IMG/VR virus record: IMGVR_UViG_3300044630_006877
DNA: 64,000 nt
Source of the DNA: an uncultured virus (IMG/VR IMGVR_UViG_3300044630_006877)
Taxonomy: Duplodnaviria; Heunggongvirae; Uroviricota; Caudoviricetes
Reading direction: 5' to 3' (one strand)
Shown: one piece after another, positions 684 to 63,441 of the stretch
Layout: each line of letters starts with the position of its first letter
Position numbering within the stretch: the stretch's first letter is position 1
Notes under the pieces: generated by a model
Seen by the model: only the letters and a program-made list of their open reading frames with translations
What the model was told of the DNA's origin: nothing
Databases searched by the model: none
Translations under genes and position numbers: made by a program

Positions 684-1145
684 CTATCCGTCAAAACCAA
701 CCCGCTGCTTCCAAAGATTAAGGCTTGGCCCAGCGGCGCGAAAAATTTGTGTCCCATATATCCTGACAACCGTCAGCATTTTTCTTGAAAGATTCTGGAA
801 CAACTCCTGACCGGCGGGTGAGTCCAGGGCGCCAGCCCAGACCTCCTGACCGGCCAGGTGCGCCAGATCCGCGGGCGTTTGATGTGCCGCCACCGGGTAG
901 AACATCACGCCACTCTTGTCCGGCCTCAAATGGTCGGGAATCCAACCATACAAAAAAGCGCAGTTCCAGGACCCGCAAACGTCGGGGCGGGACGGGTCTG
1001 TCCAGATACCGCATCCTCCCCCCTTTTTCCTGTGTGTGCAATCCGTGTACTCTGGCTTGCCCAGTTCACGCACTTCCAGCACCCTACAGCAAACATCACA
1101 CTCACCACAGGACTTGGTCAGCATGTTCAATGAAATCTTTTCCAT
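684..1145 (-). CDS. YkgJ-like CxxCxxCC zinc/iron-chelating protein
   Basis: CGECDVCC...C...GCGIW..RPDVC..WNC...RPDKSGV. Confidence 0.75.
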   Translation of the reverse strand: MEKISLNMLTKSCGECDVCCRVLEVRELGKPEYTDCTHRKKGGGCGIWTDPSRPDVCGSWNCAFLYGWIPDHLRPDKSGVMFYPVAAHQTPADLAHLAGQEVWAGALDSPAGQELFQNLSRKMLTVVRIYGTQIFRAAGPSLNLWKQRVGFDG

Positions 1146-1201
1146 GATATTCCTTGATGGTTCAACCGTGTCAGCCTATTGGTTATAAGTAGTTTGACAT
1201 A

Positions 1202-1465
1202 GCCCCCGGTTGGGCAAGCCGTCGCATCAACGGGACTGAGGTCAGTGGTGCAGGTCGTAGACCCCGACCGTCGTGTAGTGGTCCTTCAGATGCATATATA
1301 AAGCTATCTGTCGTAAGCTTGGTGCCCGGTAAGGTAAAGAGGAGTTCACGGCCGGGAGGGGACGCAAATCCCCGCTGCCAGAGATCAGCGTTGTCCGACA
1401 GGGCGACTTTGGCGGAAGAAGTGGATTGATCCACCCCAAGCTACCCCCCAACCTTTTCGCCGGGC
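1202..1465 (+). ncRNA. candidate structured non-coding RNA, family unknown
   Basis: Nested helices seen by eye: 1208-1214/1447-1453, 1316-1322/1436-1442, 1325-1329/1352-1356, 1358-1362/1369-1373, 1375-1383/1407-1415, 1421-1425/1430-1434; G-T pairs favour the + strand. Confidence 0.5.
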
Positions 1466-1824
1466 CTCCTCATACCCTGAACCCTAAGAAAACATAAAAC
1501 CCCCCAGCATTAAACTCTGAACCCACACCACCCTGAAGCAGCGTCGACAAGAAGAAGAGTAGGCAGACCCCCAAGCCGGTGCGCGAAGCGTTGGCGGTAG
1601 ACGCCAAAGGTAATACCGGCTTCAACTTCAATAGAAAGACTTCAATAAGACAAACGAAAGAATCAGTTGTAACAGAAGAATGAAAAAATCTACTTGACAC
1701 AAAAAAACGCAAAGAATAAGCTTGAAAAAGTTGAGGCAATTGACACTAGCAATAATCTCAATTTTGTTATGGAGAAAGTTGGTCAGGAACGACCCTTGAT
1801 TTTGTCCCCAAATCGAGGCTTTGT

Positions 1825-2376
1825 ATGGATATTTGTTTTGATGATCCGGTCGCTACTCTGTATTTAAACGGCTATCTTGATAGTATTTTCAAGAAGAAGC
1901 CCTTGGTCAAGAAAGACTGGGACGTGGAAGATTTTTGCCAGGAACTTTCGATGAGCTACATCCGCAAGGTTCCCGAAAATACCAGAAAAACCCTGTCGGA
2001 AAAACACAAGGAGTGCTTGGTCAAGCGCATGGCCTCCCAACTGCTCAACGACAAGTTGCGCCAGATACAGCGGGCCAAGCGCGACTGTCGTCGTTCTGTG
2101 TCTGCCGAATTCGACTTTGTTGCGGCGGAAGACAGCGTTCTAGAAAGCCTGTGCGACCAGGAGTCCTGGGAGTCCTTGCGTAGCCGCATCGACGACGAAA
2201 CCTGGATGGTCTTCCGGATGAGAGCCAGCGGTTTCAAGTGGGACAGAATCGCCCGTCAATTGGGCCAGGACAGCCCCAACGCCCTGCGGATGAGATACAG
2301 ACGCAATGTCAACAACCTGGTCATTCTTTCTCAGGGTGATGATCGAGCGACGCAGGGGCTTGTCCGGCCAGCATGA
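1825..2376 (+). CDS. ECF/sigma-70-like RNA polymerase sigma factor
   Basis: Region 2-like 'DVEDFCQE' and region 4 HTH 'VFRMRASGFKWDRIARQLG..PNALRMRYRR'. Confidence 0.7.
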   Translation: MDICFDDPVATLYLNGYLDSIFKKKPLVKKDWDVEDFCQELSMSYIRKVPENTRKTLSEKHKECLVKRMASQLLNDKLRQIQRAKRDCRRSVSAEFDFVAAEDSVLESLCDQESWESLRSRIDDETWMVFRMRASGFKWDRIARQLGQDSPNALRMRYRRNVNNLVILSQGDDRATQGLVRPA

Positions 2377-8007: not shown

Positions 8008-8550
8008 ATGATCGCTTTTGCCAAGATGGCGATTATTTATCTGATTGTCTTTGAGCGGGTTTGGCTGCCACCTGCCGCAGTTCAAGACAATCCTTTTGTA
8101 AGAAATTTGATTGCCTGGGTCGCTCAAGATCTTGAACTCTACGAATACCCCGAATGCAAAACCTTGTGGAAGGCGAGAGACGCCTACGAGCAATCGCGAT
8201 CCTGTCGTGGGCGCATAGCCGACATCCAGAAGTTTTTCTTTGTCGACTTCGGAGTGGAGGGGTCGACCTGTTACATGATCTGGATACTGAAATACAACCG
8301 CCCCTTTGAGGAGCTTTGCCGTCGCCGCATCCTGGAAAGCTACGGCGAGTCGCGCGACTTCTGGATTTCTGTCCATCGGCAAAATGATCAAATTTATCAC
8401 ATTTACGATTTGCTTGATGACATGCACCGATCCATCCCTCTTTATTGTAAGCGCCTTAAGCTAGATCGTTTGCGTCAGCTTTTGGGGGATGAGGCCTACG
8501 AGGCTGGTTGGTTTCCCAACCCCACCCCAACCTGGAGATTCTTGCCGTGA
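8008..8550 (+). CDS. hypothetical protein
   Basis: 180 aa ORF. Confidence 0.55.
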   Translation: MIAFAKMAIIYLIVFERVWLPPAAVQDNPFVRNLIAWVAQDLELYEYPECKTLWKARDAYEQSRSCRGRIADIQKFFFVDFGVEGSTCYMIWILKYNRPFEELCRRRILESYGESRDFWISVHRQNDQIYHIYDLLDDMHRSIPLYCKRLKLDRLRQLLGDEAYEAGWFPNPTPTWRFLP

Positions 8551-12042: not shown

Positions 12043-12425
12043 GAAATTGGACGATGTTGTTGTTTTTGGTCGGGTGGGCTACCGCCCTGTGGTTTTTCTC
12101 AATGCGACCGCTTTTTAATTTAGAAATGCGGACAAGTGTGGCTGAAAGCAGCTTGCGTTTTGAGATGCAGCGCGGGCAGTTGCTCAATGATGAGATTTCC
12201 GAGCTTCGGTCTAGGCCGACCTACGAGGATGGCTATAGGGACGCCGTTATTCGTGCCGGTGCGCCAGAAAATGCCAGCACATACAAGGACGGTTATGAGG
12301 CGGCGCTCCTCGTTGTTGGCGACGCCACTTACGCCGAAGGCTATCACGCAGCCATCAAACAATTTGGTTTCCCCGCCCGCCCCAATCAAGCCATCGCCAA
12401 AGCTAGGAAGGAGAACGGTCAATGA
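12039..12425 (+). CDS. membrane-anchored protein with three YxxGYxxA repeats
   Basis: N-terminal TM; TYEDGYRDA / TYKDGYEAA / TYAEGYHAA. Confidence 0.6.
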   Translation: MRNWTMLLFLVGWATALWFFSMRPLFNLEMRTSVAESSLRFEMQRGQLLNDEISELRSRPTYEDGYRDAVIRAGAPENASTYKDGYEAALLVVGDATYAEGYHAAIKQFGFPARPNQAIAKARKENGQ

Positions 12426-12931
12426 GCATTGTTTGCGTTCGCAGCGTCCGTCAGGTCACAGATGAGCAGTATGCTGAGGCTTACCAAAAATATTACGCGT
12501 GTTTGTATAAATCGTCCAAGAGCTGGATCAACAGATACGGTGAGGACGAAGCCATCCACATTGCTGGCATAGCCCTTTGGCGTGCGCTTCAGAGCTACGA
12601 CGAAAGTCGTCGGATGACCTTCATCAGTTATCTGATCAACTGCATCCGCTGGTCCTTTTTGGATCAGTACGGCGACGAAGATAAGAATCTTGTGTTCGGC
12701 ACTGTCGGTGCTGTTGATCCCTCCTACTCAGTTCCAGATCCAGACGAAAGGCCAGAAGCTATCAAGCCACACCTTAATAAAACGGCCAGGAGAATTGTCG
12801 ATTTGGTGAAGGCTGGCAAGAGCACAAATGAAATTTCTGCCGATATGAAATTTTCTCGCCAGAGAGTTCATCAAATTTTTGGTGATATTCGGGCCACCTA
12901 TAACAAGCTGTGTAAGAAGGGAAGAATTTAA
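12422..12931 (+). CDS. sigma-70-like factor
   Basis: IALWRALQSYDESRRMTFISYLINCIRW (region 2); GKSTNEISADMKFSRQRVHQI (region 4). Confidence 0.8.
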   Translation: MSIVCVRSVRQVTDEQYAEAYQKYYACLYKSSKSWINRYGEDEAIHIAGIALWRALQSYDESRRMTFISYLINCIRWSFLDQYGDEDKNLVFGTVGAVDPSYSVPDPDERPEAIKPHLNKTARRIVDLVKAGKSTNEISADMKFSRQRVHQIFGDIRATYNKLCKKGRI

Positions 12932-16402: not shown

Positions 16403-16413
16403 GGGGGTGGCCC

Positions 16414-16587
16414 GTGTGTGCCGTTTACGAGGTGCATGGGACTCCACCGGAGAAAAATCGATCCGTCCGCCTTGCCACATTTCCCGACCGCGGTATCAAT
16501 TGGCAAAAGGCTTGGAAAAAAGCTCAGGAATTTATGGATGACGGATATCGTAATGTTCGAGTCATTGAAGTCCCAAGCAACCAATAA
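16414..16587 (+). CDS. small hypothetical protein (57 aa, not in ORF track)
   Basis: Manual translation MCAVYEVHGTPPEKNRSVRLATFPDRG...VIEVPSNQ; GGGGG RBS. Confidence 0.45.
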   Translation: MCAVYEVHGTPPEKNRSVRLATFPDRGINWQKAWKKAQEFMDDGYRNVRVIEVPSNQ

Positions 16588-19965: not shown

Positions 19966-20585
19966 AAAAGAAAATTCAATGGCTGAAGTGGGTCGACCCA
20001 CTACGCTGGCAGGACACGAAAGACCCGGAGCTTTCCGGCGAACAATCCACGACGGATTCTTTTTCCGAAGACGATGGCGATCAGGATTCGGCCCGTCATA
20101 TCCGCATGATTTCTGGACCATACGGCCTTGTCCCCGTTGGCGAGCACGGCCTATCCAGCAAGCTGTACAAACTCTGGGTTGCCCACACCAATTTCGACAT
20201 CACCGATTCCGTGGTCGGGACGATCGAGGAAATTCCCGGCGTTGAGATCCTCAGGGTCTGGACTCGTTACCGCATGTGGGTCGGCATCGCCAATCTCTTT
20301 GACACGACCGAGGTGCAAAAGGCGATTGACTATGCTTTGTGCGGTGAGCCGGACCCCCCCGCTCCCCGATCCGTCAGCAAGAGAAAGGATGCCGCTGTCA
20401 GCATCCTCGTCAAGAGACTCAAAAAGGAACACCAGAATGAAGCTTGGGCTATTTGTCGATTACCAGACGGGACTCTTTGGGCTGGTACTGGAGCCGATTC
20501 TGCAACAGTCATCCAGACCATTACAGATGAAGGACTCGCCGACAACATCATTGCGTCCAGCTGGGAGAAAAGTGGTCGTGCGTGA
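19962..20585 (+). CDS. conserved phage hypothetical protein
   Basis: W.KW.DP...WVAHTNFDIT...IPGVEIL...TRYR. Confidence 0.6.
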   Translation: MKKKIQWLKWVDPLRWQDTKDPELSGEQSTTDSFSEDDGDQDSARHIRMISGPYGLVPVGEHGLSSKLYKLWVAHTNFDITDSVVGTIEEIPGVEILRVWTRYRMWVGIANLFDTTEVQKAIDYALCGEPDPPAPRSVSKRKDAAVSILVKRLKKEHQNEAWAICRLPDGTLWAGTGADSATVIQTITDEGLADNIIASSWEKSGRA

Positions 20586-21093
20586 AGTCACCGATCAACA
20601 GATTAGGGACGCCCTGAATGTTGAGGACAACCGCAATATCATGCGGAAAGTGACCTCAAAGTACTCGGCCATGATTGGCGTCGACGACCTTTACACTTGC
20701 AGTCTGTACGCCCTCTGGCGCACCTTGCAGTGTCACGATCCGAGCTACAACCAGAAGTTCACCACCAGCCTGTTTCGTTTTTGCGAGTGGGAATGTCAAC
20801 GCGAGCTTCGCAAAAAGCGGACCAAAGTGCTTTCCATGACCGTGCCGCTTGAGCAGGCGTCCCAGTCCGAGATCGGCGAGGAGACCCTGCCATCCGTCGA
20901 CAACGAGTGGGTGAGGGAGGCCATCAGCCAGCTTGATGAGGAAGACCGGGAGATTGTCCAGTTCTATTTTATCGAGAACCACAGCCTTCGCGAAGTCTCA
21001 GCCAAGTTTGGCCTGTCAAAACAAGCTGCCCGCAAACGCAAGGCCGAGGCCATGCAAAAATTGAAGGAACGACTCGAAGGTTATTCTGGTTAA
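20578..21093 (+). CDS. sigma-70-like factor
   Basis: YALWRTLQCHDP...KFTTSLFRF; LDEEDREIVQFYFIENHSLREVSAKFGLS. Confidence 0.8.
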   Translation: MREVTDQQIRDALNVEDNRNIMRKVTSKYSAMIGVDDLYTCSLYALWRTLQCHDPSYNQKFTTSLFRFCEWECQRELRKKRTKVLSMTVPLEQASQSEIGEETLPSVDNEWVREAISQLDEEDREIVQFYFIENHSLREVSAKFGLSKQAARKRKAEAMQKLKERLEGYSG

Positions 21094-34153: not shown

Positions 34154-34609
34154 ATGGCAAAGCAAGCTTCTGAGCATAGTCGTTACGAAAGCCGTTACGG
34201 TGGTGGATGGGTTGCGCCGCAACAAATCCTTGCCGAGGTTATGTGCGAACGACAAGCAGCCAAAGAAAAGACTTCCTTGCCAGCCAAATTCTGGGAGTTG
34301 CCACGCTGGAAGAAAACATTTCTTCACCAGCTTAGATTGGCCCTCAAGCTTTTGGAAAAATATCACCCTTCTGTCGTGTCGAGAGCCATCCGTTCACAGG
34401 CTGGCAAAAAGATATTTTCTTTTGGCGCTCCTTTTTTTAAGGATGCTCTGGCCCAAGAGCAGGAAAAATACGATGCGGAAATAGCCAATTTGGCCGTCTC
34501 CCCGCCGCCACCGCCGGTCGAACCGAGCATCGACGCAGAGAAACCAAGACCAGACTTTACCCCCCGTCGTTCTTTACGCAGCAAGTTGGAGGATTTTGAG
34601 CGTGAGTAA
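34154..34609 (+). CDS. hypothetical protein upstream of recA
   Basis: ORF overlapping the recA start. Confidence 0.55.
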   Translation: MAKQASEHSRYESRYGGGWVAPQQILAEVMCERQAAKEKTSLPAKFWELPRWKKTFLHQLRLALKLLEKYHPSVVSRAIRSQAGKKIFSFGAPFFKDALAQEQEKYDAEIANLAVSPPPPPVEPSIDAEKPRPDFTPRRSLRSKLEDFERE

Positions 34610-36701
34610 AAGCAAGCAGGAAAATCAAACCCAAGAAACGCAACTACAGAAAGAGCTGATCAAGCAATATGGCGAGGGGGTGTCTGTCTCTGCGCGCGAA
34701 ATGCTTGAGGAAGAAAGCTTCAAGAAGATGGTCGTGCCTGTCGGCCCAGCATTGAATGTGGGTCTGCATGGCGGCATACCAGAGGGGTCGTGGATCACTT
34801 GTTCAGGCCAGCCAAAAACCGGAAAGGAGCAGCCCGTCTCCGCAACCACCTACACGCCGAGCGGCCCCCGCAGGATTGGCGACCTGAAGGTCGGCGATGC
34901 GGTTTGTCATCCAGATGGTAACGCGGCGACTGTCGTTGGCGTTTTTCCACAAGGCATCAAGCCAGTTTACAGGGTCACTTTTGACAACGGCGATACGGCT
35001 GAGTGCGGCCTTGAGCACCTCTGGGAAGTCTCCGCAAGGTTTCGCAAGAATGCTGAGGTCATATCGCTCAAAGAATTCAAGGATGATCTTTACTACAAAG
35101 AAAAGAACAATCGGTGGGGGCAGAGACCGAAGTGGCATGTCCGTTTAAACAGCCCTGTTTTCTTTAATTCTCGTCCCGTGCCTGTCCATCCCTATGTTGT
35201 CGGGCTGATGCTGGGCAATGGGCACATGGGTGAAAAGCAGCTATATTTTTCCGCGTTCGACCGGGAGCTGGCTGTCGCTGTCGCCGATCATGCTGGCTGC
35301 GATATCTCCGCTGTCAAATCCAACAATCACGATTACCGCTTGACCGGAGCCAAACAGCTCAAGACAGCCCTCAAGCGTTTGGGCCTGATCGGCAGGAAAT
35401 CTCATACCAAGTATGTGCCGGATTGCTACCTGTACAACTCCGTCGAGGTGCGCCAGGCTGTGTTGCAGGGGCTGATGGACACCGACGGCACGGTTGACAA
35501 GGCGGGCGGCGCAGAGTTCACCAGCGTGTCTCAGGCTCTGGCCGATCAGGTCAAATGGCTGGTGCAGTCGTTGGGAGGCTTGTGCTCGATAAGGGCTTGC
35601 AGGCGCATCTTGAACGGAAAGCTTTTCAGGTCGTACCGCTGTCATATCCGCATGGTCGACATGTCTATGATTTTCCGCTTGCCACGGAAAAAGAACCGCT
35701 GCCAAAAGCGCACCTTCAGCATGACTCGCAGGATAGTCGCCGTCGATTATCTGCGTGACGAGCATTCTGTCTGCATCAAGATCGACCGTGAAGACGGGCT
35801 TTACCTTACCGATCATTTCATCGTCACCCACAACACTTCAACGGCCCTGTCCTTTGCCGCCCAGTGTCAGAAGCCGGAGTATGGTGGCCGTCATGTCTAC
35901 TACTTGAATATTGAAGGTCGTCTCAAGGAGATGAATCTGAAGGGTACTGCGGGACTCAATCTGGATAAGTTCACCATTTTCCGATCCACGCCAGACCGCA
36001 TACTCTCGGCCAAAGACTATCTGACTCTGGCAATGAAATGCATCAACACCGACCCCGGCTGCTTGGTGATCATCGATTCGGTCTCTGCCTTGTGTGACGA
36101 GAAGGAAATGGACGAAGGCGTCGGCTACGAGAATCGTGGCGCTGGCAACAAGATTTTTGCCGGTTTCTGTCGGCAAGCATCCAATGTTGTTCCAGTTCGC
36201 AATTGCTTTGTCTGGGCGATCTTGCATCTCACCCAGTCGCAGGGCATGTATGGCGGCTTTGTCGAAAAGGGCAGTCGCACATTGCAATATCAAGCCGATG
36301 TCCAGATGCGCGTGAAGTTTGATCGCGCCTGGAAGGTCGGGTCTGGAGGCAATGAAAAACAAATCGGCCAGCAGGTTCACTGGCTGATTGAGTCCTGCGC
36401 TCTCGGCCCGCCCCAGATGGAGGTGGACAGCTACATCCGCTACGGAATTGGTATCGACAATGTCTACGAGGCTATCAATCTTGGCGCCCAACTTGGTCTG
36501 ATTGGCAAGGCCGGGGCGTGGATGACCCTCGATTACATGGAGCGGCACTTGAGCCTGATGGGCGTCGACAAATGGAATGATGAGGCGGTCAAAAGAGTCA
36601 AGACCCAGGGGGCTGAAAAGCTGTACAAGCTGCTTCAGGACAATCCTTTGTGGATCGCCGCTCTGGAGTCCGAAATCAACACCATGCTGCGCCCGTCATG
36701 A
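34596..36701 (+). CDS. recA: RecA/UvsX-like recombinase containing an intein
   Basis: GGIPEG...GQPKTGK|T Walker A split by the intein; NIEGR; IIDSVSAL Walker B; KAGAW. Confidence 0.9.
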   Translation: MSVSKSKQENQTQETQLQKELIKQYGEGVSVSAREMLEEESFKKMVVPVGPALNVGLHGGIPEGSWITCSGQPKTGKEQPVSATTYTPSGPRRIGDLKVGDAVCHPDGNAATVVGVFPQGIKPVYRVTFDNGDTAECGLEHLWEVSARFRKNAEVISLKEFKDDLYYKEKNNRWGQRPKWHVRLNSPVFFNSRPVPVHPYVVGLMLGNGHMGEKQLYFSAFDRELAVAVADHAGCDISAVKSNNHDYRLTGAKQLKTALKRLGLIGRKSHTKYVPDCYLYNSVEVRQAVLQGLMDTDGTVDKAGGAEFTSVSQALADQVKWLVQSLGGLCSIRACRRILNGKLFRSYRCHIRMVDMSMIFRLPRKKNRCQKRTFSMTRRIVAVDYLRDEHSVCIKIDREDGLYLTDHFIVTHNTSTALSFAAQCQKPEYGGRHVYYLNIEGRLKEMNLKGTAGLNLDKFTIFRSTPDRILSAKDYLTLAMKCINTDPGCLVIIDSVSALCDEKEMDEGVGYENRGAGNKIFAGFCRQASNVVPVRNCFVWAILHLTQSQGMYGGFVEKGSRTLQYQADVQMRVKFDRAWKVGSGGNEKQIGQQVHWLIESCALGPPQMEVDSYIRYGIGIDNVYEAINLGAQLGLIGKAGAWMTLDYMERHLSLMGVDKWNDEAVKRVKTQGAEKLYKLLQDNPLWIAALESEINTMLRPS
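34827..35834 (+). mobile_element. class 3 intein (336 aa) with LAGLIDADG homing endonuclease
   Basis: Starts EQP; block B CGLEHLW; LAGLIDADG-like GLMLGNG and GLMDTDG; block F VCIKID; block G IVTHN followed by T(+1). Confidence 0.85.
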
Positions 36702-43660: not shown

Positions 43661-44341
43661 ATGGAGGTGAACATCATGAAGCTTGAAGCTGATCAAATTG
43701 AACGGTTTTGGTCTAAGGTTGAAAAGTCCGATGGTTGTTGGTTGTGGACAGCCGGACAAAAGAACCCGGAAGGATACGGTGGTTTTTATGTACGGCAGAT
43801 TAACAATACAGTCTGTTGTCACAAGATAGCTTTTTGTATCGAACACAATTTTGGGTTGTATGACATCCCAGAGGGAATTGTTGTCCGTCATCTTTGCAAT
43901 AACCACCCTTGCGTAAACCCTGACCACCTTGCTCTCGGAACTTACAAAGACAATAGTCTGGATATGGTTGCTGCTGGCAATTCGGTGGCTGGAGAAAAGA
44001 ACTGGAAATCTAAAGTTAGCTGGGACAAGGTTAAGGAGATGCGTCGCCTTTGGGGTACTGGCGACTACACAAAAACCCAACTAGCCAGTTTGTTTCAAAT
44101 CACTGACTGCACTGTTTGGCAGATCCTTTCCAACAGAACGTGGAAGGACCCATCTTATGTTCCGGTTGTTTTTACTGAGACAAAAAACAAAGCTTGTAAG
44201 TTTACTAACAATCAAGTGCAGGAAATAAAAGAAAAGTATAAGAGTGGAATTCCTGTTCGCATGCTTGTCACGGAATATAACATCAGCCTTTCTCAGGTTT
44301 ACAACATGCTTCACGGACGACAACGGAAAGGTGGGGTTTGA
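43661..44341 (+). CDS. HNH homing endonuclease with C-terminal HTH domains
   Basis: RFWSKVEK..GCWLW; VRHLCNNHPCVNPDHL..GT..DN; start 43661 or 43676. Confidence 0.85.
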   Translation: MEVNIMKLEADQIERFWSKVEKSDGCWLWTAGQKNPEGYGGFYVRQINNTVCCHKIAFCIEHNFGLYDIPEGIVVRHLCNNHPCVNPDHLALGTYKDNSLDMVAAGNSVAGEKNWKSKVSWDKVKEMRRLWGTGDYTKTQLASLFQITDCTVWQILSNRTWKDPSYVPVVFTETKNKACKFTNNQVQEIKEKYKSGIPVRMLVTEYNISLSQVYNMLHGRQRKGGV

Positions 44342-46254
44342 TGAGCTGGGTACCACTTCATTGCCACACTTATTTTTCCTTGCTGGACTCGCTATCTAAG
44401 CCAGACGCCGTAGCTTTGCGTTGTGAGAAGCTGGGTTATAAGGCGTGCGCCATCACAGATCATGGTACGCTCTCTGGTGTCGCCGCTTTTTCCAAGGCTC
44501 TTCGCAAGCGTGGTATCAAGCCCATCCTTGGATCTGAGTTTTATTTATGTTCCGGCCCAGCCCATGACAAGCGTCCTGAGAACGGATCTTTGTCGCACCT
44601 TTGTGTTCTAGCTAGGGGAGAGGAGGGCTGGAAAAGACTCGTCCAGGCATCCAACGCATCCAACGACCCTAATCACTTTTACAGGAAGCCGAGGTTGGAT
44701 CTCGACCTATTGGCAAAACACGCCGACGGCAAACTGATCGTCTTTTCTGGCCACCCCGGCAGCGATTTTTGCAACGCTTTGTTTCAAAATCCCAAGGCTG
44801 CGTATGGCTGTCAAACATATGATCAGGCAAGAGCCATGGTGCCAACCGACTGGGAACAGCGACTGCTCAAGATAACCAACCGCTACAAGGATCTCTTTGG
44901 AGCAGAGAATTTTTGGATTGAAATCCAGGCTGTTGACCAGGAGAACCTACCGGCTGCTGCTGTCGCCGTCAAAGGCCTCAGGCATTTTGCCAAAAAATAC
45001 GGCATCAAGACTCTGGGAACCCCTGACGCCCATTATCCGGCAAGTGAGGATGCGGCGGATCAACGGGTTCTGTTATGTTCTGCCATGCAAACGACTTTGC
45101 CGACTATTCATTCCGCTCTGGCTAGACAAGAGGATGTTTCCCTTGGCGGCTTTTTTCGTTCCAATCGCTACCACATTCCCGACTTTGACGAAGTAAAAGG
45201 GCTGCATACTGCGGCTGAGATCGAGGCGTCTCTTGAGATCAGCGATCTTTGCGGTGACTACGACATTCTGTCGAAGCCCCATTTGCCGGAATTTGCCTGC
45301 CCCAACGGCATGGGTGCTGATGAATATGTCCGACATCTGTGCCGTGAGGGCTGGAAGCGCAAGTTGAAACAGACAACCGAACGCACAGTCTATGGCGACC
45401 GTGCCAAAAAAGAGTTGGGCGTTATCACCGAAGCGGGTCTTTCGGCCTATTTTCTGATCGTGTCTGAATATTGCGAGTGGGCTAGGAATCAAGGGTGGTT
45501 AGTTGGCAAAGGGCGCGGTTCAGGTGCCGGGTGCCTTGTGAGCTATCTGCTTGGCATCACCGATGTTGATCCTGTCAAATACAGCTTGCTGTTTGAGCGT
45601 TTCTACAATGCTGGCCGTAATCAGCCTGGTCGCGTCAGTCTTCCCGACATAGATTGCGATTTTCCAATTTCTCATCGTGATGAGGTTGTACAACATATGC
45701 GTGATCGCTACGGCGATGACAAAGTAGCGCAGATGGTAACCTTTTCCAGATTGCAGGGTCGCGCAGCCATCAAGGATGTTTTACGAGCGCATGAAAAAGG
45801 CACTTTTGATGAAATCAACAAGATTACAGATCATATTCCTGATGAGGCCGCTATTTCTGACGAACTTCAGGAAATGCGTGAGGAGACAGGCGAAGCTTCC
45901 ATTCTGATGTGGGCTTTGGAAAATAACCCGAAGGAATTGGCTCAATGGTGTCGCATTGGCGACGACGGCAAACTGGAGGGTGATCTGGCTGTGGAGTTTG
46001 CCCAGGCTATCCGTCTTGAGGGAACCAAGAGAAATCAGTCAAAACATGCCGCTGGTGTGGTGATTGCGCCTAGATCGTTGGCCGATTGCTGTCCTATGGT
46101 ATTCGACAAGTCTACTAACCGTCGCATTTGCGGTGTGGAAATGTCCGACTTGGAGGCCATGGGCTTCGTCAAGTTTGACATTTTGGGGGTTGCGGCTCTC
46201 GACAAGATGCAAGGAGCTATTTCTTTGTTGAAGGGGGGATCTGTCCGTGTTTGA
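44341..46254 (+). CDS. dnaE: DNA polymerase III alpha, N-terminal fragment (PHP, palm, thumb)
   Basis: LHCHTYFSLLD, TDHG, DAHY, GRGSGAG, FERF, PDIDCDF, HAAGVV, KFDILG. Confidence 0.9.
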   Translation: MSWVPLHCHTYFSLLDSLSKPDAVALRCEKLGYKACAITDHGTLSGVAAFSKALRKRGIKPILGSEFYLCSGPAHDKRPENGSLSHLCVLARGEEGWKRLVQASNASNDPNHFYRKPRLDLDLLAKHADGKLIVFSGHPGSDFCNALFQNPKAAYGCQTYDQARAMVPTDWEQRLLKITNRYKDLFGAENFWIEIQAVDQENLPAAAVAVKGLRHFAKKYGIKTLGTPDAHYPASEDAADQRVLLCSAMQTTLPTIHSALARQEDVSLGGFFRSNRYHIPDFDEVKGLHTAAEIEASLEISDLCGDYDILSKPHLPEFACPNGMGADEYVRHLCREGWKRKLKQTTERTVYGDRAKKELGVITEAGLSAYFLIVSEYCEWARNQGWLVGKGRGSGAGCLVSYLLGITDVDPVKYSLLFERFYNAGRNQPGRVSLPDIDCDFPISHRDEVVQHMRDRYGDDKVAQMVTFSRLQGRAAIKDVLRAHEKGTFDEINKITDHIPDEAAISDELQEMREETGEASILMWALENNPKELAQWCRIGDDGKLEGDLAVEFAQAIRLEGTKRNQSKHAAGVVIAPRSLADCCPMVFDKSTNRRICGVEMSDLEAMGFVKFDILGVAALDKMQGAISLLKGGSVRV

Positions 46255-46537
46255 ACAAGATTGCGAAGAAATGGACCTTTCCAAGCGCATGGTTGCGCAC
46301 AATCTGGCTTTGCTCGACGCTTTGGCCGAGGCTTCTGAAGCTAAAAAGCGCCTGACTGAAGAGATGGGCAATGTCATCAAGGCTATCTTGATCAAGTTTG
46401 GCGGTGAGATCACCCTTGACGGGATGTTCATTGCGGCTGCCGAGTCTCCCACATGCGTTTTGAGCCATGAGGTTTCCAACGACGGCCAGACGCTTCGTTT
46501 CTGGGTCGAGGAATCAGAGGAGGTGGACGAGGTATGA
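46247..46537 (+). CDS. small acidic hypothetical protein between the dnaE halves
   Basis: Overlaps both neighbours. Confidence 0.55.
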   Translation: MFEQDCEEMDLSKRMVAHNLALLDALAEASEAKKRLTEEMGNVIKAILIKFGGEITLDGMFIAAAESPTCVLSHEVSNDGQTLRFWVEESEEVDEV

Positions 46538-47190
46538 CGAACAACATCATCATTTGTTTTGATTTTGAGACCGGCGGACTTGATATCAAGACCACCGAGC
46601 CGATTGAGATAGCTGCCGTGGCAATCAATCCGCGCACCTTGTCGATCGTCCCAGACGGGACCTTCTATAGTCTGTGCAAGCCGACTGATTTTTCGTTGTT
46701 GCAGGATCAGGCACTGGCCGTCAACGGCAAGACGCGTGATCAGCTCAAGCAGGCTCCCGAGCAGGAAGCCGTTTGGAGAAGCTTTGCCAGCTTTATCAAG
46801 CGGTTTAACTCAAAAGGCAATGGGTTCATGACAGCGCCGATTGCTGCTGGCAAAAACATTCGCATGTTTGATCTGCCGATATTCAGTCGTCTTTGCGCCA
46901 AGTACGGGTTTGCCGACAAGAATGGGGATCAAAACCTGTTTCATCGTCGGAAGGTCTATGACTTGGAAGACATCCTTGAGTATTGGTTCCACGACAGCGA
47001 TGAATTGCCGGATCGCAAGATGGACACATTGCGCGGATACTTCGGGCTATCAAGAGACGGTGCTCACTCGGCCATGATTGACACCAAGCAAACCGCTGAG
47101 TTGATTGTAAGGTTCTTGAAGGTGCATCGTTACTATGCCTCCAGAATTCCATTCCGTGGCGCCTGCGCCAAGAATGCGGTGATTGTTTAA
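46534..47190 (+). CDS. DEDDh 3'-5' exonuclease (DnaQ-like)
   Basis: FDFETGG, FDLP, AHSAMID. Confidence 0.85.
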   Translation: MTNNIIICFDFETGGLDIKTTEPIEIAAVAINPRTLSIVPDGTFYSLCKPTDFSLLQDQALAVNGKTRDQLKQAPEQEAVWRSFASFIKRFNSKGNGFMTAPIAAGKNIRMFDLPIFSRLCAKYGFADKNGDQNLFHRRKVYDLEDILEYWFHDSDELPDRKMDTLRGYFGLSRDGAHSAMIDTKQTAELIVRFLKVHRYYASRIPFRGACAKNAVIV

Positions 47191-48821
47191 TGGCTGAATA
47201 CTTCATGCCATGTGGTTGCTGCTGGCCGATAGCCGGAGAAGCGCCCCGTGTAGGTGCCTTGCCGCTCCTCGATGTTGATATTGCCAGTCTGCCAGATTGT
47301 GATTTGGCTTGGGATATCATGTCGGTCGGCAACACCAAGGGCGTGTTCCAGCTTGAGAGCAGGCTGGGGGCAACCTGGGCAAAGAAGTTGAAGCCAAAAA
47401 ACAACGAGCACCTTTCAGCTTTGGGCGCGCTGCTGCGCCCTGGCTGTCTGGCCGCCAAAGATGAGCATGGCATTTCCCTGACCGAGCACTACTGCCGTCG
47501 CGTCAACAAGGAAGAGCCTGCTGACTCCTTCGATCCTGCGCTGGATGATATTCTTGGTCCGACTGAGCAGATCCTCGTCTACCAGGAACAGTCCATGCAG
47601 ATCGGCGCCAAGCTGGCCGGGTTTGACCTCAAGGAGGTGGACCGGTTGCGTAAGGCCATCGGCAAGAAAGATCAGAAGGAGATGTCAGAGGTCAAGAAAT
47701 TGTTTCTACAGGGTGCGGAAAAAGTTAAGGTTGTTTCTATGGAGGTGGCAGAAACTGTTTGGGGTTGGATTGAAAAGGCAGGAAGGTACAGCTTCAACCG
47801 CAGCCACAGCATGTCCTACGGCATGACCGGTTACGACACCGCCTACCTGAAATCTCATTTCCCCGTGCAGTTTTATACTTCGTGGCTAGCTTTTGCCGAG
47901 GACAAGGTTGATCCCGATCAAGAGGTCATGGAGTTGGTCGAGGACGCGCGCAGGGCTGGTATTCTGGTTCTCGCCCCCGATGTCCGCCACCAGAAAATGA
48001 TCTTTTGGACAGACGGTGTTGATATTCATTTTGGTCTGGGCAACATCAAGGGTCTTGGTCAGTCCAACCTGAACAAGTTGTTCGAGGTGATCGGAAAGGC
48101 CGAAAGCGAACTGGGCAAGAAGTCCACGGATTTCATTTGGATGGAGTGGCTTGTCCATGTCGCCTCAAAAATCCCCTCGGTCAACCACAAGTTGATCATG
48201 GCTGGAGCGTTGGACTGGGCGGGCATCAAGCGTCAGCGCATGTTGGCCGAAGTCGATGTTGTCGCCTCCCTCACCGAAAAAGAACAGCAGTGGATCTTGA
48301 AGAACTGCGTTGGAACTGACGGTCTCATTGACATCCTTCGCAGGCTGGCCAAGCCCAAGAAGGAGGGTGGTGGTGTGGCCAATGTCAAGCGCGGCTCCTT
48401 GGTGAACGGTCAGGCTACTCTGCTGGAGAATCCACCGACCCCACTCAGTGATCATCCAGCTTGGATGGCGTGGGCCGAAGAGCAGGTGTTTGGTTTCGCC
48501 CTGACCTGTTCTCGCGTCGACGGCTGTGATCTGGGTGATGCCAACACGACCTGTGGCGAATTCTTGGCGGGCAAGGCGGGATTTCTCCTGCTGGGCGTCG
48601 AGGTGCGCGGCGTCAGGTCTTTCAAAACAAAGAAAGGAACCATGATGGCTTTCCTTTCTATATCGGACTCGTCCGGGATGCTGGACGATGTGGTGTGTTT
48701 CTCTGAGCCTTGGGAGGAGCACAAGCACCTCCTGGCTGAGGGTAACACTATTTTAGTGCAGGGCGAGCGAGATCCTAAAAAAGGCTCGTTGGTCGTGCGC
48801 AAAGTTTTTCAGATGTCATGA
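47190..48821 (+). CDS. dnaE: DNA polymerase III alpha, C-terminal fragment (fingers, HhH, OB)
   Basis: TKGVFQLES, LLRPG, VYQEQ, LRKAIGKK, YSFNRSH, YLKSHFP, GLGNIKGLG, TKKG.MMAF...D. Confidence 0.9.
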   Translation: MAEYFMPCGCCWPIAGEAPRVGALPLLDVDIASLPDCDLAWDIMSVGNTKGVFQLESRLGATWAKKLKPKNNEHLSALGALLRPGCLAAKDEHGISLTEHYCRRVNKEEPADSFDPALDDILGPTEQILVYQEQSMQIGAKLAGFDLKEVDRLRKAIGKKDQKEMSEVKKLFLQGAEKVKVVSMEVAETVWGWIEKAGRYSFNRSHSMSYGMTGYDTAYLKSHFPVQFYTSWLAFAEDKVDPDQEVMELVEDARRAGILVLAPDVRHQKMIFWTDGVDIHFGLGNIKGLGQSNLNKLFEVIGKAESELGKKSTDFIWMEWLVHVASKIPSVNHKLIMAGALDWAGIKRQRMLAEVDVVASLTEKEQQWILKNCVGTDGLIDILRRLAKPKKEGGGVANVKRGSLVNGQATLLENPPTPLSDHPAWMAWAEEQVFGFALTCSRVDGCDLGDANTTCGEFLAGKAGFLLLGVEVRGVRSFKTKKGTMMAFLSISDSSGMLDDVVCFSEPWEEHKHLLAEGNTILVQGERDPKKGSLVVRKVFQMS

Positions 48822-58499: not shown

Positions 58500-58692
58500 A
58501 TGTCGTCAGCCAGTTGAGGTGGACACGCCTCGCGGCAGGGGCAGGGTCTGGCTGGTCACCGACTACGGCACCGAGATCGAGAAAGTCTTCACCGTTGTCC
58601 TGGCTGATTCCGGAGAAATCTGGGAGTTCAGCAACAAGGACATCAAGGCCACCAAGAATTTCACCATGGGACGGGGGACCTGGCCCAAATGA
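58486..58692 (+). CDS. small conserved phage protein
   Basis: V.TP.G.G..W...DYG.E....VV...GE.W...N..I...N.T.GR. Confidence 0.6.
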   Translation: MVIHECRQPVEVDTPRGRGRVWLVTDYGTEIEKVFTVVLADSGEIWEFSNKDIKATKNFTMGRGTWPK

Positions 58693-62331: not shown

Positions 62332-63386
62332 CAGACTTCCTCGTAGTCGTTGCAGTTTTGGCAACAACGAATGCCGTCGCCGTTGTCCGTGAACGGTCGG
62401 CATTTTTCATGGAGTTCGCACTTGTAGACAAATTTGAGAGGGCAGTTGCAGCTTGCCGTGTCGATGGGGGTCGTGCTTTTGTGGAAGCAGGGCAAGGTCC
62501 GCCTGATATTGCCGACAGAGCGGAAACGCTCCGGAAAAACGCCTTCGTTGGGATTAACAAACTCGGCTTCCGCAAGAACGGTTTTGAGATTGGCCTCGGC
62601 AATTCTGGGAGTGAAATGCTCAACGACATCGTTGTAGGGCAGACCGAGTTCGCGGCGACCGACGACATAGTTGAAAATTCTGTCTTCCAGAAACAGGCGA
62701 TAGGGAACACCCTTGGGTCGGCCGAACCGGTGCAGCCACGTCATCCAAGGAACACACATCGCTTGACCGCCGAACTTGCGGACCTTGGAATGTATATACC
62801 CCTCTTCCCCGCCGAAGCCCCTGAACAGGGTGTTGAAGCCCGGCCATTCTTCCTTGTTCATCATGAACTGACCAAGACCCTGCATGGGGATGGGGAAGGG
62901 TTCGCCGAGCTTCACCCTCTCGTCGGTGGCCCAGGTCCCATACATGCTGTCACGCCAGACGGGATCGAAGTGTGTGGCTAGGTTGATGTGATCGTCATAC
63001 ATCAACGGACCCTGATACATGCTTTTCTTGTCGGCGTTGCCGGAACGGATGAATTCTTTTGTCTTGGCCACAACCCCTTGCGTCAACAGGACATGGCTAT
63101 CAATACACATGACCCATTCGCCCTGAGCTTCTTCAAACACAAGCTGCCTGGGCAGGGAAGTGCCGGTTGCATGGCCTCGATGGAGATAGCGCGCCTTGGC
63201 CCATTCCGCCGCGCTCTTGGTGTGGGGACATCCTGCGGGTAGATTGTCCACCACCACCAACTCGACATCAGTTAGATCGTGGTAGGTCCGTAGCGCCTGT
63301 AGGGTGAAATAGACCCCGTCGTAATCGTCGTAGGTCGCCATTCCGATAGTGAGAAGTGGTCCGGCCATAGATTCCTCCTGCGTCAT
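62331..63386 (-). CDS. glycosyltransferase family 2 with Cys-rich C-terminal tail
   Basis: LTIGMATYDD, VVVDN, CIDSHV, GFGGEE; CxH...C.C...C..H..C...CC.NC. Confidence 0.85.
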   Translation of the reverse strand: MTQEESMAGPLLTIGMATYDDYDGVYFTLQALRTYHDLTDVELVVVDNLPAGCPHTKSAAEWAKARYLHRGHATGTSLPRQLVFEEAQGEWVMCIDSHVLLTQGVVAKTKEFIRSGNADKKSMYQGPLMYDDHINLATHFDPVWRDSMYGTWATDERVKLGEPFPIPMQGLGQFMMNKEEWPGFNTLFRGFGGEEGYIHSKVRKFGGQAMCVPWMTWLHRFGRPKGVPYRLFLEDRIFNYVVGRRELGLPYNDVVEHFTPRIAEANLKTVLAEAEFVNPNEGVFPERFRSVGNIRRTLPCFHKSTTPIDTASCNCPLKFVYKCELHEKCRPFTDNGDGIRCCQNCNDYEEV

Positions 63387-63441
63387 ATGGTTTTATGCGT
63401 GGTGGCAGGGGGACGGGTTAGTATGGTAGGAGGATATTGAG

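Follow-up and report, generated by a model that had tools for sequence, protein, structure and literature searches.

A conserved double-pseudoknot RNA in a clade of uncultured large dsDNA phages

A structured RNA conserved beside a phage cysteine-protein gene

We identified a structured noncoding RNA in the window, that is, the 64,000-nt stretch of DNA from an uncultured Caudoviricetes phage (IMG/VR record IMGVR_UViG_3300044630_006877) analyzed here. Alignments and pair counts make us highly confident that it is under selection on the + strand and adopts a two-domain fold, with an H-type pseudoknot at the 5′ side, a core of 30 nt that never varies, a five-way junction, and a 3′ tail that folds back onto a loop of the junction (Table 1). 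The sequence comparisons indicate that the RNA is a real, uncatalogued family of double-pseudoknot phage noncoding RNAs with a narrow known range. An earlier note on this DNA had proposed a new phage noncoding RNA on this strand, and the proposal is borne out by covariation, by the preference for the + strand, by the absence of an Rfam match, and by the lack of conservation of the minus-strand open reading frame (ORF).

Four distinct homologs (L001, L005, L013, and L138) were found among the matches listed from pattern scans of viral and metagenome sequences, giving five sequences with the window; the RNA of L005 is sequence-identical in L002 and L085. The pattern-scan matches were mostly chance ones, with real matches amounting to 4/7, 4/18, 5/12, 4/28, and 2 of at least 120 listed, 80 of which were rescreened with model R1. 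The RNA was intergenic in 5/5 loci and present in single copy, with one R1 match each in the window, G001, and G002. The gap that holds it, from 1147 to 1825, is the biggest between + strand ORFs of at least 70 aa, in agreement with its earlier description as the largest intergenic gap.

The homologous RNAs showed DNA identities to the window of 87.6, 90.0, 74.8, and 89.4% (L001, L005, L013, and L138, respectively). The corresponding values in the same four loci were 83.9, 77.4, 72.0, and 80.9% for the neighboring gene of a cysteine-rich protein, and the GNAT gene gave 87.4, 77.9, and 70.5%. The RNA (75 to 90%) is therefore conserved as strongly as, or more strongly than, its flanking genes, in a clade without a close cultured relative, and the identity of the downstream sigma-like protein falls to 48%. 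Conservation begins with an invariant TGGTTATA at 1180 and stops sharply at 1472. The ~260-nt candidate first placed at 1195 to 1465 was thus correctly located, but its 3′ end had been set too early. One more locus, L003, equals that of L005 except that 89 nt are missing, which removes most of the 5′ domain (around L003 2060 to 2070); this gap is either an assembly artefact or a natural deletion, which would be a sign that the 5′ domain is dispensable.

Outside these records the RNA was not encountered. A blastn search of 50,697 annotated phages gave no match, an exact 24-mer of the RNA had 0 occurrences in GTDB genomes, and model R1 matched 0/151 genomes of Planctomycetota (a phylum that is only a guess at the host) and 0/4 unrelated large records. 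The model also matched 0/19 fragmentary related phage records, an absence that is uninformative because they are 3 to 49% complete.

Table 1. Positions of the RNA, its structural parts, and neighboring features in the window
Feature	Position	Strand	Description
Cysteine-rich protein gene	684..1145	-	153-aa protein; CxxCxxCC-like, with 8 invariant cysteines; lies head to head with the RNA in 5/5 loci
Probable sigma-70-type promoter of the RNA	1161..1189	+	Weak -35 at 1161-1166; -10 TATAAG at 1184-1189 within invariant TGGTTATA
Structured noncoding RNA	1197..1472	+	~276 nt in the window (264-276 nt in homologs); from alignments and pair counts
5′ hairpin GCCC/GGGC	1202..1215	+	4 pairs invariant in 5/5; loop varies in sequence and length; no covariation
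PK1, H-type pseudoknot	1219..1251	+	Stem 1 1219-1222/1230-1233; 1-nt loop; stem 2 1224-1229/1246-1251
Invariant 30-nt core	1260..1289	+	Identical in 5/5; holds GGTCG/CGACC hairpin strand
Hairpin CAGA/TCTG	1287..1310	+	Loop length variable; GCAA tetraloop in L013
Five-way-junction domain	1316..1442	+	Closing helix 1316-1322/1436-1442; branches 1325-1356, 1358-1373, 1375-1415, 1421-1434
PK2	1339..1471	+	Loop GAGGAG (1339-1344) with 3′ tail CTCCTC (1466-1471)
Second conserved noncoding block	1540..1611	+	Kept in 4/5 loci; L013 keeps a short motif only
TTGACA-17-TAAGCT promoter (1694-1722) and ECF-sigma-like gene (1825-2376)	1694..2376	+	Separate from the RNA

Covariation and folding energy

The nine inner helices of the earlier note, which were drawn from the window alone, were examined in the four homologs. 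Of the distinct changed pair types, 19/22 were canonical (4 gap cells were set aside), and 9/10 double changes were compensatory. As a control, the predicted pairs of two neighboring genes on both strands kept 154/484 changed pairs (Fisher p = 3.7e-7 versus 19/22), with 38/76 double changes compensatory (p = 0.019 versus 9/10), although the nine helices were hand-picked and the control used all predicted pairs. When all minimum-energy pairs of the RNA were used instead, like for like, the + strand kept 23/45 (p = 0.013) and the minus strand 17/54. The consensus fold had an energy of -92.8 kcal/mol on the + strand with a covariation term of -3.9, whereas the minus strand gave -78.8 and +2.0.

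In a refined model of 68 pairs, partly fitted to the alignment, 98.8% of cells were paired and double changes occurred in 12 pairs, with 0/500 shuffles as good. The 16 pairs of the two pseudoknots were 100% paired with 4 double changes and 1/500 shuffles as good. Both results come from a test in which related sequences can beat shuffles; the distinct sequences number five, and most double changes come from the L013 lineage.

Folding energy alone fails to single out the whole region, and it is the homologs that settle the reality of the RNA. The folding z-score, which had been suggested as a check, favored the 3′ domain at 1316 to 1442 (z = -3.2, 0/200 shuffles as good; -3.5, -2.6, -1.3, and -4.6 in the homologs) but not 1195 to 1465 as a whole (z = -0.36, 69/200 shuffles as good). 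The values were -1.5 for 1208 to 1453 and about 0 for the 5′ domain.

That whole-region score and the existence of an 83-aa ORF are what would speak for there being no RNA here at all, only a minus-strand protein gene at 1183 to 1434 or a chance structure. However, this ORF, whose conservation had been named as the finding that would count against an RNA, is frameshifted or stopped in 4/4 homologs and has no Pfam match. The smaller share of pairs kept on the minus strand and the covariation argue against this explanation as well, and we regard it as scarcely credible. Neither strand of the RNA holds an ORF conserved across the homologs.

Architecture of the RNA and a possible second fold

All helices named in the earlier note exist in the sequence at or beside the places given there. 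However, the helix GGTTGGG/CCCAACC, proposed to close the whole structure, is intact (with wobbles) in L001 and broken in L005, L013, and L138, and the 5′ hairpin takes its place in the refined fold. Furthermore, two covarying pseudoknots had been missed, the 5′ H-type PK1 and the loop-to-tail PK2. In PK1, 100% of the cells were paired, with one double change in stem 1, two in stem 2, and additional wobble changes; it is not an out-of-sample test because it was derived with the L013 sequence already seen. PK2, on the other hand, was predicted before that sequence was seen, and L013 then showed a compensatory change from G-C to C-G, the one double change in this pseudoknot.

The five-way junction was also supported by double changes, two in its closing helix and 2, 2, and 3 in three of its branches, while the stem at 1325 to 1356 never varies. 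A pyrimidine linker lies between the junction and the 3′ tail. Invariant runs of 30 and 14 nucleotides stand amid varying surroundings, and strands of the 30-nt core could pair over a long range with 1347 to 1356, a pairing compatible with 5/5 sequences.

The 3′ tail carries a second invariant CCGGG (1460 to 1464), a copy of that in the first junction stem, and therefore all five sequences allow a second fold. In this fold, the tail takes over 1325 to 1329, and 1347 to 1356 pairs with 1263 to 1275 of the core. As the invariant CCGGG and the CCCG each occur as two strands, two mutually exclusive folds are possible in 5/5 sequences. The pairings of the second fold are without covariation support because nothing varies in those strands. 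We consider it unlikely that the RNA is a two-state machine of a new class, in which the 3′ tail would swap strands with the 1325 to 1356 stem, the junction would be locked on the core by a 10-bp long-range helix, and the resulting triple-pseudoknot active site would make a new ribozyme or an RNA-only modifier of the host RNA polymerase.

The GAGGA of the PK2 loop is invariant and resembles a Shine-Dalgarno sequence, and a phage CsrA gene lies nearby (510 to 680). An RNA serving as a CsrA sponge, as the earlier note had suggested among other roles, or as a ribosome decoy through this loop is nevertheless very improbable. Sponges such as CsrB and RsmZ carry many GGA motifs in repeated hairpin loops, as opposed to the 5 to 8 GGA per RNA found here, which lie mostly in stems or the pseudoknot, and the sole conserved loop GGA is paired in PK2. 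The same burial argues against the decoy, as the loop GAGGA covaries with the tail.

Promoter, transcript, and neighboring genes

A probable promoter of the sigma-70 type precedes the RNA. The TGGTTATA around its -10 element is invariant in 5/5 sequences, with the -10 region lying six bases before (G)GACA, and the homologous site in L013 reads TTTACA-18-TATAGT, matching the consensus in 10/12 positions on the RNA strand. The TATAAG element had been noticed before and is present, although one position downstream of the 1183 to 1188 first reported. In a promoter scan of the window, the RNA's own upstream site did not pass. We infer a start of the RNA near 1196 to 1197. One sequencing run labeled RNA-Seq covers 1463 to 1732 only; it is probably DNA and is uninformative on expression.

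Behind the RNA, a variable, unstructured, A/C-rich linker (1473 to 1539) leads to the second conserved noncoding block, which has a weak consensus fold (-5.6 kcal/mol) and may or may not be on the same transcript. Telomere-like repeats in the linker were considered and rejected, since neither L005 nor L013 retains them. Stops or the lack of a start likewise led us to reject an ORF behind PK2 or within the second block.

The gene after the RNA is sigma-like in four loci, in all of which a separate promoter lies between the two, whereas a different gene of 143 aa follows the RNA in G002. In G002, the sigma gene and its promoter are ~8 kb away, and the RNA is still beside the cysteine gene. The RNA is therefore not a leader of the sigma gene, which has its own TTGACA promoter at 1694. 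A hairpin at 1794 to 1818 sits just before the start of the sigma-like gene, over the likely ribosome-binding site, and a similar one occurs in L001 and L016.

A cis-acting leader of a more general kind, heading the long co-directional gene array as a put-like processive antiterminator or a co-transcriptional switch, is possible but rather unlikely. In the 3 loci scanned, the RNA is not directly followed by a terminator-like site, which would fit a leader as well as a stand-alone RNA, and a terminator-like hairpin lies further downstream; nearly all downstream genes of the window are on the RNA's strand. According to PMC9378689, the put RNA of phage HK022 acts just downstream of its promoter, free of protein factors, over at least 10 kb; it is about 70 nt long, has two stem-loops, and occurs in two copies per genome. 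Our RNA resembles it as a phage RNA just behind a host-type promoter and upstream of a long gene array. However, it is four times larger than put, pseudoknotted, and single copy, relatives do not all have the same gene downstream, and a separate promoter intervenes in four loci. In the switch version of such a leader, equally doubtful, the last-made tail would invade the 1325 to 1356 stem with the duplicate CCGGG and free 1347 to 1356 for the core at 1263 to 1275. The duplicated CCGGG/CCCG strands make this feasible in 5/5 sequences, but the alternative pairings never vary and so bring no covariation support.

The constant neighbor on the other side, the divergent cysteine-rich protein, belongs to a large unnamed family with 8 invariant cysteines (3968 clusters at E <= 0.001). 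PF03692 matched weakly in 1/18 relatives scanned. Its predicted structure had a pLDDT of 93.9, and a Foldseek search of the PDB with it gave no match at E <= 0.001. The protein is only a candidate partner of the RNA, solely by constant adjacency, which is no proof of an interaction because the protein family is much more widespread than the RNA.

Comparison with known RNA classes

We searched Rfam 15 with the window and with three homolog loci. The window gave 0 matches at the gathering score and none over 1197 to 1472 at E <= 10, and the RNA in the 3 homolog loci gave none at E <= 10 among families including GOLLD, ROOL, raiA, OLE, HEARO, 6S, SRP, riboswitches, and ribozymes. The earlier failure to match the RNA to tRNA, tmRNA, RNase P, SRP, or 6S RNA therefore holds: besides Rfam, ARAGORN found 0 genes in the window, and class motifs were absent in 5/5 sequences. 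The T-arm motif of tRNA and tmRNA is among these absent motifs, and there is no conserved ORF. The helix-8 motif of SRP RNA, with its GNRA loop, is also absent in 5/5, and the hairpin that could be compared with it carries GACA as an invariant loop. Motifs of group I and group II introns and of the hammerhead (P7, domain 5, and the CUGANGA core) occurred in 0/5 sequences, and no gene is interrupted.

RNase P RNA was examined more closely. The likeness is superficial and consists of a multi-way junction that has hairpins next to it and is joined to the 3′ region by a pseudoknot (as in the P7-P9 region). The CR-I/CR-V motifs (P4 pseudoknot) were found in 0/5 sequences on either strand. Local alignment to Escherichia coli rnpB beat shuffles for 2/5 sequences and failed for L013 (295/300 shuffles as good), and in its register the core of RNase P falls on a loop that varies.

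Other origins of the RNA were also rejected. A fragment or mimic of 16S or 23S rRNA gave at best 7/100 shuffles as good (window against 23S), with 25 to 89/100 for the other four sequences. For a retron, DRT, or DGR template, PF00078, the reverse transcriptase family searched for, was found in 0/2 near-complete relatives and in none of the 76 window proteins scanned. For a TnpB or Cas12f guide RNA, PF07282 was found in 0/2 near-complete relatives, and the 94 of 168 G002 ORFs scanned against Pfam held no IscB or Cas9 match. A search for antisense targets in the window and in G002 gave only chance matches of 11 to 15 nt.

If the RNA were a new kind of ribozyme that cleaves itself or processes RNA, its active site would be formed by the invariant core and the long-range pairings, and the duplicate CCGGG would be an exchanged substrate or product strand. 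The 30 + 14 invariant nucleotides, the two pseudoknots, and the exchangeable strands fit such an activity, and the tRNA-Met and odd tRNA-like RNA of the relatives would need processing. However, no Rfam ribozyme matched at E <= 10, the RNase P, hammerhead, and intron motifs scored 0/5, the RNA interrupts no gene, and the window itself is without a tRNA. We therefore regard a ribozyme as quite unlikely.

Likeness to orphan RNAs and proposed mode of action

The RNA has the features of an orphan ornate phage noncoding RNA, namely a complex pseudoknotted fold supported by covariation, a phage origin, and a noncoding sequence. Its closest counterparts in manner of working may be GOLLD and ROOL, which PMC12286853 describes as large, highly structured, multi-pseudoknot noncoding RNAs of phages and prophages with unknown function; the lengths given there are 659 nt for ROOL env-120 and more than 800 nt for many GOLLD RNAs. 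Our RNA shares with them the phage origin, the structure, and the pseudoknots. However, it is ~276 nt long and has no Rfam match. In addition, it is not in a tRNA island, as the sole tRNA of G001 and of G002 is ~10 kb off.

The raiA-motif RNA, a monomer of 205 nt according to PMC12286853, is similar in size class. As described in PMC10861870, it is also like our RNA in having two pseudoknots with covariation, a domain of several stems, many invariant bases, and its own promoter. In contrast, raiA RNAs are chromosomal in Bacillota and Actinomycetota, whereas our RNA is known only in one phage clade, lacks a helix closing both ends, and has no Rfam match. Our literature searches found no description of it. 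A catalogue of 10,006 viral RNA candidates (PMC10690425) could hold this RNA; in those of its supplements that were compared, neither contig identifiers nor the core sequence matched.

By analogy with GOLLD, ROOL, and raiA, the RNA may work as a stand-alone, stable, trans-acting RNA, a reading to which we give an about even chance. The sigma-70 RNA polymerase of the host would transcribe it from the conserved promoter, and trimming, not a terminator, would define its 3′ end. The pseudoknots at both ends would make it compact and resistant to exonucleases, and the end-protected RNA would accumulate as a stable RNA. It would then act in trans, serving as a scaffold or decoy that in its folded form binds a host or phage protein through the invariant junction and loop bases; this action is modeled on proposals for GOLLD, ROOL, OLE, and raiA-motif RNAs.

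Large pseudoknotted RNAs are rare in bacteria and phages, and the solved ones are ribozymes, ribonucleoprotein cores, or RNA cages. The RNA would add an uncatalogued family of the GOLLD/ROOL/raiA kind, and its 276 nt suit in vitro transcription, probing, imaging, and assay. The five natural variants already supply compensatory mutants. Together with a second uncatalogued, tRNA-like RNA in the relatives, it suggests that the clade may use an undescribed RNA toolkit.

The phage clade and its replication genes

The RNA-bearing clade is one of uncultured dsDNA phages of roughly 145 to 150 kb. Two relatives with the RNA measure 145 kb (97% complete) and 149 kb (100%, with direct terminal repeats), and the window belongs to the genome of a large dsDNA phage, with genes for Pol III alpha, DnaB, primase, ribonucleotide reductase, SSB, RecA, and PhoH. 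Its other genes include glycosyltransferases, HNH nucleases, and sigma-like proteins. The window DnaB is 98 and 87% identical to those of the two near-complete relatives and less than 30% identical to those of cultured phages among the best matches listed. The sequencing runs that match the window best are lake-water metagenomes.

Planctomycetota is only a presumed host phylum. PhoH matches are spread over many phyla at 44 to 50% identity, and Atlas matches are mostly viral clusters; neither gave a host assignment.

The replication genes bear on the proposal that the RNA is a replication-origin element or the primer RNA of an R-loop origin, placed before the AT-rich stretch at ~1620 to 1790. 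The RNA is single copy per genome, a promoter is followed by a G+C-rich transcript and then an AT-rich tract, and the skew of G002 deepens from -0.06 to -0.18 just past the locus. However, the phage has its own DnaB, primase, Pol III, and SSB, and the skew does not change sign at the locus. Short repeats are two-copy only and none is common to the homologs, leaving no conserved iterons, and G002 has a gene within about 210 nt instead of an AT-rich tract. A primer RNA, another role suggested in the earlier note, is therefore disfavored, and an origin function of either kind seems improbable.

Other genes, RNAs, and conserved gaps in the clade

A CsrA homolog is encoded at 510 to 680 of the window, and sigma-factor-like genes are located at 1825 to 2376, 12422 to 12931, and 20128 to 21093. 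The RecA-like gene at 34596 to 36701 contains a LAGLIDADG domain, probably an intein. DNA polymerase III alpha, at 44338 to 48821, is encoded by two separate genes, one for the PHP/NTPase part and one for the finger/OB part, and a gene for an exonuclease lies in between. Downstream of the RNA, almost every gene of the window shares its strand.

A tRNA-like RNA of about 163 nt, also uncatalogued, was observed in G002 (L016 2656 to 2818) and G001 (L320 about 8335 to 8497); it was sought in the window and not found there. It has an acceptor stem, a T-arm with a TTCGAGT loop, and two long extra arms. The G001 and G002 copies are 73% identical over 95 nt, with no Rfam match of note at E <= 1. The single tRNA-Met of the relatives is absent at the syntenic place of the window (about 9620), where an HNH gene lies upstream.

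Three gaps of the window (16403 to 16587, 58500 to 58688, and 63243 to 63441) are 70 to 78% identical to G002 over about 170 nt and could represent small genes or additional RNA elements. Finally, the region from 125000 to 145000 of G002 shows a strong strand bias, with a GC skew of -0.09 to -0.18; it is a region of small genes that starts just past the RNA locus.
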